Of a stretch of 32,273 bases of DNA, positions 1 through 6,359 are shown one piece after another. The position numbers and the translations under genes were made by a program. How positions within the stretch are numbered: position 1 is the first letter of the stretch; the number at the start of each line of letters is the position of its first letter. The stretch lies in assembly GCA_005888925.1 (NCBI GenBank), contig VBCP01000089.1, positions 1-32,273 of the forward strand, in the 5' to 3' direction. The notes under the pieces were generated by a model, which ran no database searches, was not told the origin of the DNA, and was given only the letters and a program-made list of their open reading frames with translations. Origin of the DNA: Betaproteobacteria bacterium. Lineage in GTDB: Bacteria > Pseudomonadota > Gammaproteobacteria > Burkholderiales > SG8-39.

Positions 1-1443
1 AAAGGCGTGAAGAAGGTGGTGCAGGTGGGCGACAGCGCGGTTGCGGTCGTCGCCGACAGCTGGTGGCAGGCGAAGACGGCGCTCGATGCGCTGCCGATCG
101 TGTGGGACGAGGGCGAAAACGCCAAGGTGTCGAGCGCCACCATCGCGGAGATACTGAAGGCGGGCCTGGATGCGGATCAGGCTTTCGTCGGCAACCAGAA
201 CGGCAACGCGAAAGAGGCGCTCGCCGGCGCGGCGAAGAAGGTGGAGGCGGTCTACGCCTATCCCTTCCAGAACCACGCCTGCATGGAGCCGATGAACATG
301 ACCGCGCGCTACACGCCCGAGCGCTGCGAAGTCTGGGGCCCGACGCAACACGGCGAGGCCGCTTTCGCAGCGGTCCTCGCTGCATCGGGGCTGCCCGCGG
401 ACAAGGTCGATGTCTACAAAACCATGCTCGGCGGCGGCTTCGGCCGGCGCGGCGGCTACCCCAACGACTACGTGACGCAGGCGGTGCTGATCGCCAAGCA
501 GATGCCAGGCACGCCGATCAAGATGCTGTGGTCGCGCGAAGAGGACATGCTGCACGGCCGCTATCACCCGATCATGCAGTCCAGGCTCGTTGGTGGCCTC
601 GACGCGAGCGGCAACCTCACCGGGCTGTACATGCGGCTCTCCGGGCAGTCGATCCTCGCCGCGGTGCGGCCGGAGGTGGTGCAGGCGCAGAAGGGCAGGG
701 ACCCGCTCAGCTTCCAGGGCGTCTTCGAGAGCGGCGAGCACTCGTTCAGCTACACGGTGCCGAACCTCCTGATCGACCATGCGATGCGCAACACGCATGT
801 GCCGCCGGGCTTCTGGCGCGGCGTCAACATCAACCAGAACGCGATCTTCATCGAGTGCTTCATGGATGAGCTCGCCGAGGCGGCGGGGCAGGACGCGCTG
901 GAGTTCCGGCGCAAGCTCCTCGCCGACAACCCGCGCGGCTGGGGCGTGCTCAAGGCCGCGGCGGACAAGATCGGCTGGGGCAAGCCCGCGCCTAAGGGCA
1001 GGTTCCGCGGGCTCTCGGTGCTGAAAGCGTTCAACAGCTACGTGGCGGGAGCCGCCGAGATCTCGGTGACCGGCGGCAACAAGGTGAAGGTGCATCGCCT
1101 CGTCGGCGCCACCGATCCGGGCTACGCGGTGAACCCGGCGCAGATCGAGCGCCAGGTGGCGGGCTCGTTCGTCTACGGCCTTTCGGCGGCCTTCTTCCAG
1201 GAGTGCACGGTGAAGGACGGCCGCATCGAGCAGACGAACTTCCACGACTACAACTCGATGCGCATTGCGCAGATGCCCAAGGTCGAGGCGATCCTGATGC
1301 CGACCGGCGGAGCCGTGTGGGGCGGCGTCGGCGAGCCGACGATCTGCGTCGCCGCACCGGCAGTGTTGAATGCGTTGTATCGCGCGACCGGCAAACGCAT
1401 CCGCTCGGTGCCGCTCAAGAACCACGGCTTCGAGATGGTGTGA
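1..1443 (+). CDS. Molybdopterin-binding large (beta) subunit of a xanthine dehydrogenase/aldehyde oxidase-family dehydrogenase (IorB-type). C-terminal ~480 aa only; the 5' end is outside the window.
   Basis: Frame is open from base 1. GGGFGRRG motif and overall IorB-like C-terminal sequence (YAVNPAQIERQVAGSFVYGL, GEPTICVAAPAVLNA). The stop overlaps the next start (GTGTGA). Confidence 0.8.
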   Translation, partial: KGVKKVVQVGDSAVAVVADSWWQAKTALDALPIVWDEGENAKVSSATIAEILKAGLDADQAFVGNQNGNAKEALAGAAKKVEAVYAYPFQNHACMEPMNMTARYTPERCEVWGPTQHGEAAFAAVLAASGLPADKVDVYKTMLGGGFGRRGGYPNDYVTQAVLIAKQMPGTPIKMLWSREEDMLHGRYHPIMQSRLVGGLDASGNLTGLYMRLSGQSILAAVRPEVVQAQKGRDPLSFQGVFESGEHSFSYTVPNLLIDHAMRNTHVPPGFWRGVNINQNAIFIECFMDELAEAAGQDALEFRRKLLADNPRGWGVLKAAADKIGWGKPAPKGRFRGLSVLKAFNSYVAGAAEISVTGGNKVKVHRLVGATDPGYAVNPAQIERQVAGSFVYGLSAAFFQECTVKDGRIEQTNFHDYNSMRIAQMPKVEAILMPTGGAVWGGVGEPTICVAAPAVLNALYRATGKRIRSVPLKNHGFEMV

Positions 1444-1844
1444 GGTTTTTGCTCCTCATCCTTCCATTTCTATTCTTCGGCAAGGCTCTGGGAGATGACG
1501 CAATCCCGGCCTCGCTCACGGGCGCCAAAGGCGACCCGCAGCGGGGCCGGGCGATCGTCGCCAACCGGCAGGTCGGCCTTTGCCTGCTGTGCCACAGCGG
1601 GCCATTTCCGGAGGAGCGCTTTCAAGGAAACCTCGCGCCCGACCTGCGCTCCGCGGCGCGGCTGACCGAGGGTGAGCTCCGCTTGCGCTTGGTCGACCCC
1701 GCCCGCGCGAATCCGCAGACCATCATGCCGGCGTACTACCGCACCGAAGGACTCACGCGCGTCGCACCGTCGCTGCGCGGCAAGTCGATACTCACGGCCG
1801 AGCAGATCGAAGATGTGGTCGCCTACCTTGTGACGCTGAAATGA
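1440..1844 (+). CDS. soxX: Monoheme c-type cytochrome, SoxX-like
   Basis: GTG at 1440 overlaps the upstream stop. Hydrophobic N-terminus (RFLLLILPFLFFGKALG), single CLLCH heme motif, SoxX-like tail (IMPAYYRTEGL...LTAEQIEDVVAYL). Confidence 0.75.
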   Translation: MRFLLLILPFLFFGKALGDDAIPASLTGAKGDPQRGRAIVANRQVGLCLLCHSGPFPEERFQGNLAPDLRSAARLTEGELRLRLVDPARANPQTIMPAYYRTEGLTRVAPSLRGKSILTAEQIEDVVAYLVTLK

Positions 1845-2311
1845 CCAGCCGGCGCCAATTCCTGTTGCTGACGTGCGGTGCGCTTGCGGCCGGCGAGGCT
1901 GTGGCTCAGCTCGACCCGAACATAGCCGCCAAGCGCGAAGCGGCGCTGCGCGCGGCGATCGGCAAGATCACCGACGGTAAGCCGATCCGCACCGGCAAGG
2001 TGAAGCTGCAGGTGCCGCCGCTCATCGACAACGGCAACACCGTGCCGCTCGCCGTGGCGGTCGAGAGCCCGATGACGGCCGAGAACCATGTCAAGGCGAT
2101 CCACGTCCTCACCGAGAAGAATCCGCAGCCCTATGTGCTGAGCGCGCATCTGGGTCCGCGCGCGGGACGCGCGAGCCTCTCCACCCGCGCGCGCATCGCC
2201 GACACGGGGCGCGTCATCGCGATCGCACAGATGTCCGACGGCTCGTTCTGGCAGGACAGCGTCTCGGTGGTGGTGACGCTTTCCGCCTGCCTCGAGGACG
2301 GGCTGATCTGA
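1841..2311 (+). CDS. SoxY-family sulfur carrier with a non-canonical C-terminal arm (ends ...TLSACLEDGLI instead of GGCGG)
   Basis: Twin-arginine signal (MTSRRQFLLL). SoxY-like core (VKLQVPPLIDNGNTVPLAVAVESPM...HVKAIHVL). ATGA overlap with soxX. Confidence 0.75.
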   Translation: MTSRRQFLLLTCGALAAGEAVAQLDPNIAAKREAALRAAIGKITDGKPIRTGKVKLQVPPLIDNGNTVPLAVAVESPMTAENHVKAIHVLTEKNPQPYVLSAHLGPRAGRASLSTRARIADTGRVIAIAQMSDGSFWQDSVSVVVTLSACLEDGLI

Positions 2312-2631
2312 TGGCGCGCGTGGCGATCACCGCGCCGTCGAGCGCGAAGAAGGGCGAGATCATCGAGATCAAGACGCTCGCCGCGCACGTCATGGAGAAC
2401 GGCTTTCGCCGCACGCAGGAGGGCGCGCTGATCCCGCGCGACATCATCACGCAGTTCGTCTGCACCTATAACGGCGTCGAGATCTTCCGCGCCGAGCTGC
2501 ACCCGGCGATGGCGGCGAACCCGCTGATCGCCTTCACCACCGTCGCCACCGAGAGCGGCACGCTGGAATTCAAGTGGACCGGCGACAACGGCTACGCCGA
2601 GACGCAGTCGGCGAGCCTCAGCGTCTCTTGA
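2311..2631 (+). CDS. soxZ: SoxZ thiosulfate-oxidation carrier complex subunit
   Basis: 106 aa. SoxZ-like sequence (KKGEIIEIKTL..HVMENGFRR......FKWTGDNG). TGATG overlap with the soxY-like gene. Confidence 0.8.
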   Translation: MARVAITAPSSAKKGEIIEIKTLAAHVMENGFRRTQEGALIPRDIITQFVCTYNGVEIFRAELHPAMAANPLIAFTTVATESGTLEFKWTGDNGYAETQSASLSVS

Positions 2632-3359
2632 GGGCCGCCGCCCTCGTCCTCTCCATGCTGTGCATGTCGCTCCAGGCGGGGGAGATTCCGCTCGGCGAGC
2701 GCCGCTCCGGCTACGAGTTCATGGGGCGCGATACGCGCGCCATGCAGGACGACGACAGCACCAACCCGGCGCTCTTCTGGCTGATGGACGGCGAGACGCT
2801 GTGGAAGCGCAAGGACGGCGTCGCCGCCTGCTCGAGCTGCCACGAGACCATGAAAGGCGTGGCCGCGCGCTACCCCAAGGTCGCCGGCGGCCGCGCGGTG
2901 AACCTCGAGCAGCAGATCAATGCCTGCCGCAGCGAGCGGCAGAAGGCCGCGCCATTGGCCTACGAGAGCCGGGAGCTGCTCGCACTTACCGCCTACGTGG
3001 CGCGCCAGTCGCGCGGCATGCCGATCGAGGCGGGCTGGAACGAAAGGACCGAAGCAGGACGCGCGCTCTTCACCCGCCGGCAGGGCCAGCTGAACCTCGC
3101 CTGCACCCAGTGCCACGACGACAACTGGGGCAAGCAGCTCTCCGGCACCACCATCCCGCAGGCGCATCCCACCGGCTACCCGATCTACCGGCTCGAGTGG
3201 CAGGACATGGGCTCGCTGCAGCGGCGGCTGCGCAACTGCATGATCGGCGTGCGCGCCGAGCCGTATCCGTACGGCTCGGCGGAGCTCGTCGATCTCGAGC
3301 TTTACCTGATGTGGCGCGCTCGCGGCATGAAGCTCGAGACGCCCGCGGTGCGGCCTTAG
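2628..3359 (+). CDS. soxA: Diheme c-type cytochrome SoxA
   Basis: Two heme motifs (CSSCHE, CTQCHD) and the conserved region [13 protein letters not shown] with the Cys heme-ligand position. Start assigned to TTG 2628 (TTGA overlap with soxZ), which gives the signal peptide [19 protein letters not shown] 2655 is an alternative. Confidence 0.8.
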
Positions 3360-4363
3360 AACAATCGCGCCAGCCGCTCGCGGTTGGGCGCGAGCACGAC
3401 GCCTTTCTCGCAGATGATCCCGGTGATCAGCTCGGCCGGCGTCACGTCGAACGCCGGGTTGCGCACCTGCACGCCCTTCGGCGCCCAGCGCATCTTGCGA
3501 TAGCCGGTCACCTCGTCGGCCGGCCGCTCCTCGATCGGAATGTGCGAGCCGTCGGAGATCTTCGGATCGAAGGTCGAAAGCGGCGCCGCGACGTAGAACG
3601 GCACGCCATGGCGCTTGGCCAGCACGGCGAGCGCATAGGTGCCGATCTTGTTCGCCACGTCGCCATTCGCGGCGATGCGATCCGCGCCCACCACCACGAC
3701 GTCGACCTCGCCTTTGCTCATCAGGTGACCGGCCATGCTGTCGGTGATCAGCGTGCAGGGGATGCCTTCCTGGAGGCATTCCCAGGCAGTGAGCCGCGCG
3801 CCCTGCAGGTAGGGGCGGGTCTCGCAGGCGATTACCGAGATTTTCTTTCCCTTGGACGAGCGCACCACGCCCAGCGCCGTTCCATACCCGGCGGTCGCCA
3901 GGGCGCCCGCGTTGCAGTGGGTCATGACGCGCGCCCGCTCGGCGATAAGGGGCGCGCCAAGCTCGCCGATCGCCCGATTCGCCGCCAGGTCCTCCTCGTA
4001 AATCGCCTTGGCCTCGGCCTCGAGGTCCTTTGCCCGCTTCATGCGATCGAGCGCCCAGAAAAGATTCACCGCGGTCGGCCGGCTCTGGCGCAGCGCCTCG
4101 TAAGCCTTGGGCGAACCTTTGCCGAGCACGACGCCGAACGCGGCGGCGCAGCCGATCGCCGGCGCGCCGCGCACCACCATGTCACGGATTGCCTTCGCGA
4201 CCTGCTCGGCCGTGCGGCAACTGACGTAGATCTTCTTGTCGGGGAGCAAGCGCTGGTCCAGAAGCTCGAGCCGGTCGCCGCGCCAGCGAATCGGTTGTAC
4301 TGCAGAAATCCCACGGCGCTTCGCGCCACCCCCCTTATCAGGGGGGCGAAGGCGCTTATTCAT
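3356..4363 (-). CDS. mtnA: S-methyl-5-thioribose-1-phosphate isomerase (eIF-2B alpha/beta/delta family)
   Basis: MtnA-like motifs: [70 protein letters not shown]. Start ATG 4363 overlaps the upstream stop (ATGA). The longer track ORF to 4621 is rejected. Confidence 0.9.
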
Positions 4364-6330
4364 ACGACGCGCTCGTTGCCGCCATCGACGGGCACCTGCG
4401 CCGCCGTGGTCTTCGCGAAGAGCGGCCCGCACATCTCGGCGGCGAGTTCGGCCACGTCCTTGGACGACACCTCGGCCTTCAGCAGGTTGTTTTTCTTGTA
4501 CTGCTCGACCGTCATGTTGTAGGCCTTGGCGCGCGAGGCCAGCACTTCCTCGGTCCACAGCCCGGTGTCGAAGACCTGGTTGGGGTGCAGCGAGTTGATG
4601 CGGATGCCGTCCTTCGCCCACTCGAGCGCGGCGACCCTGGCGAGCTGGTTGAGCGCTGCCTTGGACGCCGAGTAGGCGGCAGCACCCGGTCCGGGCGCCG
4701 GCACGTTCTTCGAGCCGATGACGACGATGCGGCCGCCGCGCGGCGCGAGCTTGAGCAGCGGATGGCAGGCCTGCATCACGAGCAGGTTGGCTTCCACGTT
4801 CACCGACATGGCGCTGCGCCAGCTCTCGGCGGCGATGTCCTGGATCGCCTGGGAGGAGGGGAAGATCCCCGCGTTCAGCACCAGCATGTCGACGCCGCCG
4901 AAGCGGCGCACCGCCGCGTCGAGCGCTGTATCGATCGCCTTGGCATCGGTCAGATCGCAGGTGATACCGAGCACATCGGCCCGCTTCCAGAGCGTCGTTA
5001 TCGCCGGATTGCGATCCAGGCCGACGACCGCGGCGCCGCGCTTTAGAAAAGATTCGACGCAGGCCTTGCCGATGCCCGAGGCGGCGCCGGTGACGAGCAC
5101 GATCTCGCCGGTGAAAAGCGGCGGCGAGCCGGCCTTGCGCAGCTTCGCCTGCTCCAAGTCCCAGTACTCGATGTCGAAGGTGTGGCGCTGGTCGAGCGCG
5201 CGCCAGCCGCCGAGCGCTTCCGCGCGCAGGATGACGTCGATGGTGTGCTCGTAGAGCTCTTCGACGATCGCGGTGTCCTTCGCCGTGCGGCCAGCAGCCG
5301 CAAAGCCGAGTGCCGGGTCGAGTGCCATGCGCGGCGCGGCGTCCAGCATGGTCTTCTTCTCCTTGGCGGCGTTGGCGTGGCGCTCGAAATATTCGCCGTA
5401 GCGCTTCGCATACCCCGGCACATCGCGGCCGAGCATCGGAACCGGCTTGGTGCGAATCACATGATCGGGCGTCGCCGGCCCCTGCTGGGAGAGCTTCTCC
5501 ACCTCCGGGCGCTGCGCGAAGCCCAGAAATTTGGCGCTGTCGTTGACCCGAACCACGAGCGGCAGGCCGGCCTGGTCCGAGATCGAGCGGCGCAGCGCGG
5601 CGATTTCCGCACGCTTGGCGCTCGCAGTGCGCGCCGGCGGCGGAGCGACATGCCAGGCCTTCTTGCGCTGCAGGTATTCCTCCGCCATCGAGACGAGCTC
5701 GATCATGCGCTCGTAGGACTCACGCGCATCGGCGCCGAACGAAAAGACGCCGTGCGACAGGAGCACCATGCCGATGGTGCGCTTGCCGGCCTGGCGCGGA
5801 AACTCGCGCGCACAGTAGGCGGCGAGATCGAAGCCCGCCATGATGTACGGAATCACGGCGACGCGATCGCCGTAGATCTCGCGCACGCGCTTTTCGCCCT
5901 CCGGCGCGTTCGACACCGAGAGCACGGCGTCGGCGTGCGTGTGATCGACGTAGGTGTGCGGCAGGATCGCGTGCAGGATGGTCTCGACCGAAGGCGAGGG
6001 CGCCCCGGCGCGCAGCATGTGCGTGTTGAGCTCGTTCACCATCTGCGGGTCGGGCAGGCTGGGGAGCGCCGCGAGCCGGCGCACGTAGCCGAGCGTCACG
6101 GGGGTGAAGCCGGCAGCCTCGATGGTCTCGAGATCCCAGCCGCTGCCTTTCACGTAGAGGATGTCCTCGTCCTCGCCGAAGAGATTCTTCTCGCGCAGCT
6201 TGACCGAGGTATTGCCGCCGCCGTGCAGGACCAGCGACTTGTCGCGGCCCAGCAGCCGCGAGGTATAGACGCGCGGCCCGAGCGCGCCGCTGAACTGCGC
6301 CGCTTCGGCGTCGCTCCAGAGACTTTTCAT
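4360..6330 (-). CDS. Bifunctional class II aldolase/adducin-domain + short-chain dehydrogenase fusion (RhaEW-like architecture)
   Basis: N-terminal aldolase-like part ([18 protein letters not shown]). C-terminal SDR part ([23 protein letters not shown]). Start taken at ATG 6330 (MKSLWSD); ATG 6357 is an alternative. Confidence 0.85.
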
Positions 6331-6359
6331 CCGGCTGCCTTTGTGATTTGCATCCAAAT

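Follow-up and report, generated by a model that had tools for sequence, protein, structure and literature searches.

The operon and its products

The first 3359 nt of the window, a 32,273-nt stretch of DNA from an uncultured soil betaproteobacterium, carry five genes on the forward strand (Table 1). The observation made in the first-pass annotation, of a molybdenum cofactor (Moco) gene joined to a variant soxXYZA set, is confirmed: the five open reading frames lie where they had been placed, and start and stop codons overlap at all four junctions. Read from the sequence, the GTG start of soxX at 1440 overlaps the TGA of iorB (1441-1443), the ATG of soxY' at 1841 overlaps the TGA of soxX (1842-1844), the TGA of soxY' (2309-2311) and the ATG of soxZ (2311) have one base in common, and the TTG of soxA at 2628 overlaps the TGA of soxZ (2629-2631). 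The non-ATG starts of SoxX and SoxA each yield a proper signal peptide, and identical overlaps are found in relatives. As had also been noted, a convergent mtnA gene (TIGR00512, 422 bits) lies downstream of soxA, and neither soxB nor soxCD follows the operon. A scan of positions 1-4700 for promoters and terminators gave no signal above that of shuffled sequences.

Table 1. Genes and sequence features within positions 1 to 3359 of the window.
Feature	Position	Strand	Basis
IorB-type Moco large subunit, 5' end cut by contig start	1..1443	+	Pfam domains
IorB motif GGGFGRR	430-450		
IorB motif GVGEP (G-x-G-E-P, catalytic Glu)	1324-1338		
SoxX-like monohaem cytochrome c, 134 aa	1440..1844	+	TIGR04485
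SoxX haem motif CLLCH	1581-1595		
SoxY' carrier protein, 156 aa	1841..2311	+	TIGR04487, Pfam SoxY
SoxY' twin-arginine signal RRQF, residues 4-7	1850-1861		
Variant swinging arm S148-A-C150-L-E152-D-G-L-I156	2282..2308	+	Alignment with Paracoccus SoxY
SoxY' Cys150 codon	2288-2290		
SoxZ, partner of the carrier, 106 aa	2311..2631	+	TIGR04490, Pfam SoxZ
SoxA-like dihaem cytochrome c, 243 aa from TTG 2628	2628..3359	+	TIGR04484
SoxA haem motif CSSCH	2829-2843		
SoxA haem motif CTQCH	3102-3116		
SoxA active-site Cys204 within RRLRNC	3237-3239		

The window's IorB, a molybdopterin-binding large subunit of the xanthine-oxidase family, corresponds to the C-terminal 480 residues of the protein; about 245 residues of the N-terminus are lost at the contig start, and the Tat signal with them. 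It matches MoCoBD_1 (2.8e-32) and MoCoBD_2 (3.1e-12) in Pfam and is 88-90% identical to the 725-aa proteins that loci L012 and L013 encode in full length. These match from end to end (2.2e-69, or 4.6e-102 with a profile) the large subunit of the membrane-bound aldehyde dehydrogenase of Gluconobacter (8gy3_C), the nearest solved relative of IorB. In relatives with 74-90% identical IorB proteins, IorB has a Tat signal and a 2Fe-2S IorA is encoded directly upstream. Indeed, IorA precedes IorB in every relative whose DNA reaches that far, as the first-pass annotation had predicted, the window's own copy being unassembled. A search of the other contigs of the genome for the organism's own IorA and IorB N-terminus yielded only paralogues, with at most 57% identity. 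The Sox-linked IorB proteins cluster as a tight group, with a mean column identity of 74% across relatives.

Large-subunit homology, the upstream 2Fe-2S subunit and the Tat signal of the relatives liken this enzyme to the Gluconobacter aldehyde dehydrogenase and to IorAB-type periplasmic molybdenum hydroxylases. In three-subunit enzymes of the Gluconobacter type, the third subunit is a cytochrome c. In contrast, the module has no gene for such a subunit and is joined to Sox-type proteins instead. No recurrent cytochrome c gene beyond soxX and soxA was found in the gene tables of four relatives or by ORF clustering of 49 loci, except for a small ORF preceding a flavocytochrome gene in some of them (see below).

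As for the cytochromes and SoxZ, all score above the cut-offs of their models. SoxX, which has a Sec-type signal peptide, reaches 71.3 bits against TIGR04485 (cut-off 61), SoxZ 82.9 bits against TIGR04490 (cut-off 76; 2.8e-26 against Pfam SoxZ) and SoxA 201 bits against TIGR04484 (cut-off 110). Aligned with Rhodovulum SoxA (1h31_A, 6e-38), SoxA retains both CxxCH motifs and the 'NAC' cysteine. The haem-ligand cysteine is likewise retained ('RRLRNC' here versus 'DRFRGC' in 1h31_A), its ligation being predicted from the alignment. Judging from the comparison with relatives, positions 1-3359 hold all but the first gene of a six-gene periplasmic operon, iorA-iorB-soxX-soxY'-soxZ-soxA, which is conserved and self-contained.

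The variant carrier SoxY'

SoxY' scores 187.5 bits against TIGR04487 ('SoxY-related AACIE arm protein', SoxY_para_1), above the curated cut-off of 172, and 3.5e-30 against Pfam SoxY. In contrast, it remains below the cut-off of the true-SoxY model TIGR04488 (101.5 versus 125 bits) and has no GGCGG C-terminus. Both sequence and model scores thus agree with its initial description as a SoxY-like protein with a Tat signal and a SoxY core but lacking the GGCGG arm, and the class with an AACIE-type arm and no defined substrate that the first-pass annotation mentioned is indeed TIGR04487. Close relatives carry the same NCBI name. The protein ends in ...VTLSACLEDGLI, the arm being SACLE followed by DGLI. 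Cys150 is the only cysteine of mature SoxY', because Cys12 sits in the signal peptide. It was therefore rightly singled out as the sole candidate for the carrier role, but it lies six residues from the C-terminus rather than eight as first counted. In alignments with 2ox5_Y and 2oxg_Y, both from Paracoccus SoxY, it falls on the carrier cysteine ('VTIGGC' there, 'VTLSAC' here). The T-x-x-A-C-x-E arm motif is kept in 49 related loci, with T146, A149, C150 and E152 invariant among 32 aligned sequences. The conservation of the A-C-x-E arm in all 49 loci rules out that this ending stems from a sequencing error.

SoxY' resembles TIGR04487 proteins in its score, its Tat signal, its SoxY core, its Cys-bearing A-C-x-E arm and the adjoining SoxZ, and differs from them in having SACLE and DGLI in place of AACIE. 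Many relatives from the Betaproteobacteria that share both arm type and operon with it appear to score below the cut-off of that model, which two of seven hits passed. Another family, TIGR04557 ('quinoprotein dehydrogenase-associated SoxYZ-like carrier'), is similar in that its name ties a SoxYZ-like carrier to a non-Sox dehydrogenase, but its members are SoxY-SoxZ fusions that partner a PQQ enzyme. Membership in it is ruled out for both SoxY' and SoxZ, whose weak matches (62 and 32 bits) are far under the cut-off of 140. Protein clusters with SoxY-like relatedness number 6251 at E <= 1e-20, a figure that may include canonical SoxY. No IorB-SoxY' fusion was found in the protein search. The eight longer proteins that the SoxY' fusion search returned, seven of which are singleton clusters, all have SoxY, SoxZ or SoxA domains and may be frameshifted gene calls.

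Conservation of the module and its relation to canonical Sox genes

The Moco and sox genes are co-conserved in both Beta- and Alphaproteobacteria: of the 44 informative loci, i.e. those that reach far enough, 43 have IorB immediately before soxX-soxY'-soxZ-soxA. We also looked for a standard sox cluster around the module, and no SoxB, SoxC or canonical soxY is encoded within 10 kb at any of 53 related loci. The flanking genes vary from locus to locus, with guaBA/pilin, LrgAB and malate synthase among them, and conservation is thus confined to the module itself. At L057, the carrier gene directly follows IorB and no SoxX was found in the locus, an arrangement that makes IorAB and SoxY'Z' look like the core. 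Loci L059-L061 encode SoxY-related proteins with a GGCGI ending and have neither IorB nor SoxXA. In L032, from one metagenome-assembled genome, iorAB has been cleanly lost and soxXY'ZA is intact, which we count against the main reading proposed below.

The only other recurrent neighbour is the flavoprotein of flavocytochrome-c sulfide dehydrogenase (FCSD), present in 19 of 49 loci, which ties the module to reduced sulfur. In the alphaproteobacterial-type loci L015-L017 and L020, a small ORF precedes the FCSD gene, that of L015 having one haem motif, CSGCH. The operon has no SoxF/FCSD gene in the window or in L012-L014. An FCSD homologue (45% identity) is encoded on another contig, C540, of the window's genome.

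A search for canonical sox genes elsewhere in that genome revealed a separate set comprising a true GGCGG SoxY (G000:C344:3154-3597), SoxZ, SoxA, SoxB and three copies of SoxC, with SoxB and SoxC on contigs other than the window. As this organism has the complete canonical system too, the two sets are not redundant assembly duplicates. A bona fide SoxB is encoded elsewhere in 20 of 25 module-bearing genomes. SoxB was not seen in the other five, among them the isolate Telmatospirillum siberiense, and the module therefore need not feed the canonical pathway. Its SoxX, SoxY', SoxZ and SoxA are homologous to those of the Paracoccus and Rhodovulum systems, including the carrier Cys and the haem-ligand Cys of SoxA. 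Unlike those systems, the operon lacks the GGCGG terminus as well as SoxB and SoxCD, and harbours the IorAB molybdenum hydroxylase instead. By homology, the module is a second, paralogous Sox-like set, apart from the organism's canonical thiosulfate-oxidising system.

The operon link between a molybdenum enzyme and duplicate Sox genes is not new. It was described in 2013 for Starkeya novella, whose second sox cluster soxX2Y2Z2A2F2 (Snov_1982-1977) goes with a xanthine-oxidase-family molybdenum enzyme (Snov_1975/1976) (Kappler & Nouwens 2013, PMC3797975). Our search of the literature on AACIE-arm or SoxYZ carriers with xanthine-oxidase-family or isoquinoline oxidoreductase enzymes found nothing beyond that report. 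Compared through its published description, the S. novella cluster likewise combines a two-subunit enzyme of this family with duplicate SoxAX and SoxYZ in one operon without SoxB or SoxCD. Its locus-tag order fits that of the alphaproteobacterial relatives: IorA, IorB, small cytochrome, FCSD flavoprotein, SoxX, SoxY', SoxZ, SoxA. It differs in having SoxF, which is missing from the window lineage and L012-L014. In Bradyrhizobium diazoefficiens, soxY2, which may or may not belong to the AACIE-arm class, is dispensable for thiosulfate oxidation (PMC5748708).

Possible functions of the module

The suggestion in the first-pass annotation that SoxXA and the variant SoxYZ may serve the molybdoenzyme, as electron acceptor and/or carrier of a non-thiosulfate substrate, is partly supported: the genes belong together, whereas such a service, its direction and its substrate are inferred from gene context. 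It is tempting to speculate that SoxXA loads a sulfur compound onto Cys150 and that IorAB oxidises the tethered adduct in place of SoxCD, the whole forming a separate paralogous set. We favour this reading tentatively, at somewhat less than even odds. SoxX'A', with its predicted cysteine-ligated active-site haem, would attach a reduced sulfur compound to Cys150 of SoxY' by oxidative coupling; this compound is probably an inorganic anion of sulfur, for instance sulfide, polysulfide or thiosulfate. IorAB would then oxidise the carrier-tethered adduct, in the role that SoxCD has in the standard pathway. Because IorAB has no cytochrome subunit of its own encoded, its electrons might pass through two [2Fe-2S] clusters to a soluble cytochrome c or to the haems of SoxXA. 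In favour of this reading are the conserved linkage to IorAB, the invariant arm with its positionally homologous cysteine, the retained haem-ligand cysteine of SoxA and the recurrent FCSD neighbour. Against it count, besides L032 and the chemistry known for the enzyme family (see below), the weak expression of the S. novella cluster, the dispensable soxY2 of B. diazoefficiens, the lack of IorB-SoxY' fusions in the protein search and the missing IorA and IorB N-terminus in the assembly. A structure prediction for SoxY' and SoxZ in complex with L012 IorB (residues 36-725) scored 0.84, and a control with IorB replaced 0.80; the score therefore comes from the SoxY-SoxZ pair and speaks neither way on binding of IorB.

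A bolder form of this proposal, which we regard as doubtful, is that IorAB is the first xanthine-oxidase-family enzyme to work on a carrier-tethered substrate, namely an S or S-C adduct on Cys150, and that the six genes make up a complete branch of periplasmic sulfur oxidation independent of SoxB and SoxCD, with a non-classical substrate. To our knowledge, enzymes of this family hydroxylate carbon centres (aldehydes, N-heterocycles, CO) and not sulfur, and we know of none that acts on a protein-tethered substrate.

Alternatively, IorAB might be an ordinary periplasmic dehydrogenase of a free small molecule, such as an aldehyde or an N-heterocycle, with SoxXA replacing the cytochrome c subunit as acceptor and SoxY'Z' serving as an accessory, e.g. 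for redox buffering or enzyme protection. The nearest solved relative of IorB is an aldehyde dehydrogenase subunit, the GVGEP catalytic-glutamate motif is typical of carbon hydroxylases, and SoxX and SoxA are the module's only cytochromes, where the aldehyde dehydrogenase complex has a cytochrome c subunit. Nevertheless, the other IorAB paralogues of the window's genome (on C105, C126 and C307) have neither an adjoining CxxCH protein nor Sox genes, and a missing cytochrome gene alone therefore does not call for SoxXA. That SoxA retains a predicted catalytic, cysteine-ligated haem site, unlike a plain electron carrier, that the carrier Cys and the nearby Glu of SoxY' are invariant, and that SoxY'Z' remain beside IorB in the SoxX-less locus L057 further make this explanation unlikely.

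It also seems improbable that soxXY'ZA encodes an isoenzyme set passing another sulfur substrate into the canonical pathway, with SoxB and SoxCD supplied from elsewhere and IorAB co-transcribed but chemically independent. If the functions were unrelated, it would be hard to explain why iorB is almost always adjacent, with overlapping start and stop codons; moreover, the module never adjoins canonical sox genes. It is true that most module-bearing genomes have SoxB, that the window's genome also encodes canonical SoxY, SoxZ, SoxA and three SoxC copies, and that SoxX, SoxZ and SoxA exceed the cut-offs of the 'true' Sox models; literature cited by PMC3797975 also proposes that duplicate SoxAX proteins act as isoenzymes. 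However, the changed, longer arm with its invariant Glu is presumably ill suited to enzymes adapted to GGCGG, and SoxB was not seen in one fifth of the genomes, including a 6.2-Mb isolate genome. As for the suggestion that such clusters are functionally insignificant duplicates, it stems from S. novella, in which the homologous cluster shows hardly any expression during growth with thiosulfate, methanol or glucose, and the SoxAX2 and SoxYZ2 proteins were not detected under four growth conditions, although the authors leave room for others (PMC3797975). We consider it very improbable here, in view of the strong conservation of IorB and of the 49 loci, spanning two classes of Proteobacteria, in which all five genes are intact. 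All five are under purifying selection, with dN/dS values of 0.03-0.25 for nearly all gene pairs.

Surveys of genomes and metagenomes read thiosulfate oxidation from the presence of soxX, soxY, soxZ and soxA, and SoxX, SoxZ and SoxA here pass the NCBI 'true' equivalog models though they are part of a different module. The window adds one clean example of that module, from a bacterium that also bears a canonical Sox system. If the molybdenum enzyme does act on a carrier-bound substrate, the xanthine-oxidase family would gain a new type of reaction, and soil and freshwater Proteobacteria a new sulfur-cycle route.

The SoxY variant and its gene set

The five open reading frames at positions 1-3359 of the window, all in one orientation, encode part of a molybdenum enzyme, SoxX, a SoxY homologue (hereafter SoxY'), SoxZ and SoxA (see table). 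Every junction overlaps start to stop, as the first-pass annotation had described, and these overlaps recur in relatives. SoxX starts with GTG and SoxA with TTG, and plausible signal peptides follow from both starts. The convergent mtnA gene is present after soxA as described. The soxA stop codon TAG (3357-3359) and the minus-strand stop of mtnA (3356-3358) overlap, so that the two genes share a few bases at their 3' ends (3356-3359), leaving no space for a terminator between the genes, and a scan of this junction yielded no terminator-like site. The two genes abut likewise in the nearest relative (L012/L065). Directly behind mtnA lies an aldolase/dehydrogenase fusion gene, which overlaps the frame 3356-4621 at that frame's upstream end; the pair is retained in L012. 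The remaining genes are unrelated (GNAT, DNA polymerase III delta', Rieske oxygenase, glycosyltransferase, HlyD/ABC exporter and SpoIIE-type phosphatase). The window is an entire contig (G000:C507:1-32273) of its genome assembly, G000, which comprises 629 contigs with a completeness rating of 85.8% and in which the DNA 5' of window base 1 is absent.

Features of the window and SoxC copies elsewhere in assembly G000
Feature	Position	Remarks
IorB-type molybdopterin-binding large subunit, C-terminal 480 residues	within 1-3359	Pfam MoCoBD_1 and MoCoBD_2
SoxX	1440-1844	single CLLCH haem motif; TIGR04485 passed
SoxY homologue (SoxY')	1841-2311	
SoxZ	2311-2631	TIGR04490 passed
SoxA	2628-3359	TIGR04484 passed
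Class II aldolase domain and short-chain dehydrogenase fusion	4360-6357 (-)	665 residues
SoxC copy	G000:C170:973-2184	616 bits
SoxC copy	G000:C457:1222-2439	608 bits
SoxC copy	G000:C614:4377-5603	513 bits

SoxY' carries a twin-arginine signal and ends in ...VTLSACLEDGLI. Compared with the SoxY family models, as had been proposed from the unusual C-terminus, it passes TIGR04487, 'SoxY-related AACIE arm protein' (187.5 bits, cut-off 172), whereas it fails the true-SoxY model TIGR04488 with only 101.5 bits (cut-off 125). Its close relatives bear the former name at NCBI and that of plain SoxY at JGI. Cys150 is the exact alignment partner of the carrier cysteine in the Paracoccus SoxY structures 2ox5 and 2oxg ('VTLSAC' versus 'VTIGGC'). 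In an alignment of 32 relatives, T146, A149, C150 and E152 are invariant, and the stretch after the arm Glu is variable and one to five residues long. The carrier cysteine thus keeps the homologous position, and its invariant sequence context is new. As the A-C-x-E/D arm is retained in all 49 loci of the SoxY' class, it is a trait of the family, and a sequencing error at the terminus can be ruled out.

The proteins look functional. Both CxxCH motifs and the first-haem cysteine ('NAC') of Rhodovulum SoxA are found in the window SoxA, as is the active-site ligand cysteine ('RRLRNC' in the window, 'DRFRGC' in Rhodovulum), and IorB has kept its GGGFGRR and glutamate (GVGEP) motifs, with a mean column identity of 74% over two proteobacterial classes. 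The dN/dS ratios of the five genes in seven pairs range from 0.03 to 0.25, except for SoxZ in the comparisons of the window with L012 and L013. In those comparisons soxZ gives 0.41-0.58 (0.05-0.15 in other pairs) and the neighbouring genes 0.12-0.25; the low dS (0.23-0.36) suggests synonymous-site constraint or a short-gene artefact.

A conserved module apart from canonical Sox genes

Scanning a single genome from each species yielded 53 loci, onto which the proteins of the window, and then those of its closest relative, were mapped. The A-C arm is found in 49 of them, of which 44 extend far enough upstream to be informative. IorB lies directly ahead of soxX, or ahead of a flavocytochrome pair that precedes soxX, in 43 of these 44, so that the Moco gene and the sox genes are indeed co-conserved. 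IorA, a Fer2/Fer2_2 protein of 150 residues, precedes IorB wherever the locus DNA extends that far, and the large subunit of relatives bears a Tat signal. Precomputed Pfam gene tables give the order IorA, IorB, SoxX, SoxY', SoxZ, SoxA in the nearest relatives, in Telmatospirillum and in a Bradyrhizobiaceae-like MAG. The flanks differ between lineages and are mutually unrelated, which indicates that the module alone is conserved. The sole true exception to the IorB linkage, L032 from a Burkholderiaceae MAG, shows a clean 2.8-kb loss of iorA-iorB relative to its close relative (L032:9383-9470 versus L029:6670-9466), with soxX-soxY'-soxZ-soxA intact. In a Geminicoccaceae MAG (L057:38-2294), soxY' lies 43 bp 3' of iorB; soxX is not between them and was not found elsewhere in this 6.1-kb locus, which has SoxZ and SoxA. 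Three SoxY-related loci whose SoxY ends in GGCGI have neither IorB nor SoxXA. The distribution of the module is patchy: of 400 genomes sampled evenly across the class, TIGR04487 matched seven at E <= 1e-30 and only two above the cut-off.

In the Polynucleobacter necessarius isolate PPGSP2 (L028/L068), just the C-terminal half of IorA matches upstream of IorB, with no Fer2 gene called, and SoxB of the L028 genome has three in-frame stop codons. Decay of sulphur-oxidation genes may therefore be in progress in this genome. A Polynucleobacter strain was reported to harbour a four-gene cluster, Pnuc_1154-1157, as one of three SOX clusters, and to have SOX genes known elsewhere from Alphaproteobacteria, B. 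japonicum among them (Hahn et al. 2012, PMC3308952).

A standard cluster in close proximity would have spoken against a separate role; within 10 kb of the 53 loci, however, none of the genes for SoxB, SoxC and canonical SoxY was found. The search for canonical sox genes elsewhere in the genome, which the first-pass annotation had called for, uncovered a full set on other contigs of G000, so the set of the window is a second, divergent one. A GGCGG-ending SoxY is at the end of contig C344, and C461 begins inside SoxZ, followed by a canonical SoxA (28% identity to that of the window) and SoxB (814 bits). Unlike a standard sox cluster with its single SoxC, G000 has three copies of this sulfane dehydrogenase Mo subunit, each above the TIGR04555 cut-off.

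A recurrent neighbour gene and relatives of the molybdenum enzyme

Clustering of all open reading frames around the modules revealed one single additional recurrent gene, for an FCSD-type flavoprotein (Pyr_redox_2, FCSD_central and FCSD-flav_bind domains), in 19 of the 49 loci, either in the iorB-soxX gap or 3' of soxA. A small open reading frame separates iorB from this gene in four loci of alphaproteobacterial type (L015-L017, L020); the L015 copy has one haem motif, CSGCH. Many lineages thus show a linkage between the module and a flavoprotein of the sulfide-dehydrogenase type. The pair is absent from the operon in the window and its nearest relatives, and an FCSD homologue in G000 is on a separate contig, C540.

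A full-length IorB relative aligns end to end with 8gy3_C, the large subunit of the membrane-bound aldehyde dehydrogenase from Gluconobacter (2.2e-69 with a single sequence, 4.6e-102 with a profile), and other xanthine-oxidase-family enzymes match over partial lengths only. In a tree, the Sox-linked IorBs group tightly; the nearest paralogue clade includes a protein of G000 contig C307 (52% identity), with no sox genes beside it, and second copies that some Alcaligenaceae carry immediately 5' of the module. Xanthine-oxidase-family enzymes are abundant in G000 (C307, C105, C126, C483, C607, C413 and others), with large-subunit matches on at least 14 further contigs and a similar number for IorA-type small subunits.

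Possible roles of the module

It is tempting to speculate that SoxX'A', the SoxXA of the module, would join a reduced sulphur species to Cys150 of SoxY', that IorAB would then oxidise the tethered adduct, and that electrons would exit through the iron-sulphur clusters to the haems. The interpretation of the first-pass annotation, in which SoxXA and the variant SoxYZ may serve the molybdoenzyme, is partly supported, as the linkage of the Moco and sox genes is borne out in relatives; the coupled mechanism is a tentative proposal, which we hold to be possible but somewhat short of probable. What speaks most strongly against it is that the known chemistry of xanthine-oxidase-family enzymes is carbon hydroxylation rather than sulphur oxidation, and that a protein-bound substrate is not known for any of them. 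IorAB could also be a dehydrogenase of a free substrate, with SoxXA serving as its cytochrome, although this seems unlikely to us. The third subunit of the Gluconobacter enzyme is a multi-haem cytochrome c, of which the module encodes no counterpart; the cytochromes of the module are confined to SoxX and SoxA, joined in some loci by the small cytochrome c beside FCSD.

It is doubtful that soxXY'ZA is instead an isoenzyme set supplying the canonical Sox pathway. SoxB is above the cut-off in 20 of 25 other module-bearing genomes; none was found in the isolate Telmatospirillum siberiense and four MAGs, the latter possibly incomplete. Its gene order sets the module apart from SoxB/SoxCD, and in some genomes the gene content does so too. 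Bradyrhizobium diazoefficiens has two soxY homologues, only soxY1 being essential for thiosulphate oxidation (Masuda et al. 2017, PMC5748708); soxY2 is a candidate for the SoxY' class. The second sox operon of Starkeya novella additionally encodes a xanthine-oxidase-family molybdenum enzyme (Snov_1975/1976); its SoxAX2 and SoxYZ2 were undetected, with very low transcripts on thiosulphate, methanol and glucose, and the authors considered it either without functional significance or active in conditions not yet tried (Kappler & Nouwens 2013, PMC3797975). That the module is a silent duplicate appears highly improbable to us. As read from its sequence, the module is translationally coupled, conserved, under selection and periplasmic, and the catalytic site of SoxA is predicted to be intact.

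The initial observation is confirmed. We found no functional study of the module in the literature; the testable question of its role had been raised before, and the window brings no feature that answers it. SoxX, SoxZ and SoxA of the window pass NCBIfam 'equivalog' models of true thiosulphate-oxidation proteins. Automated annotation therefore scores these paralogues as canonical Sox, and marker-gene surveys will tally them as such.
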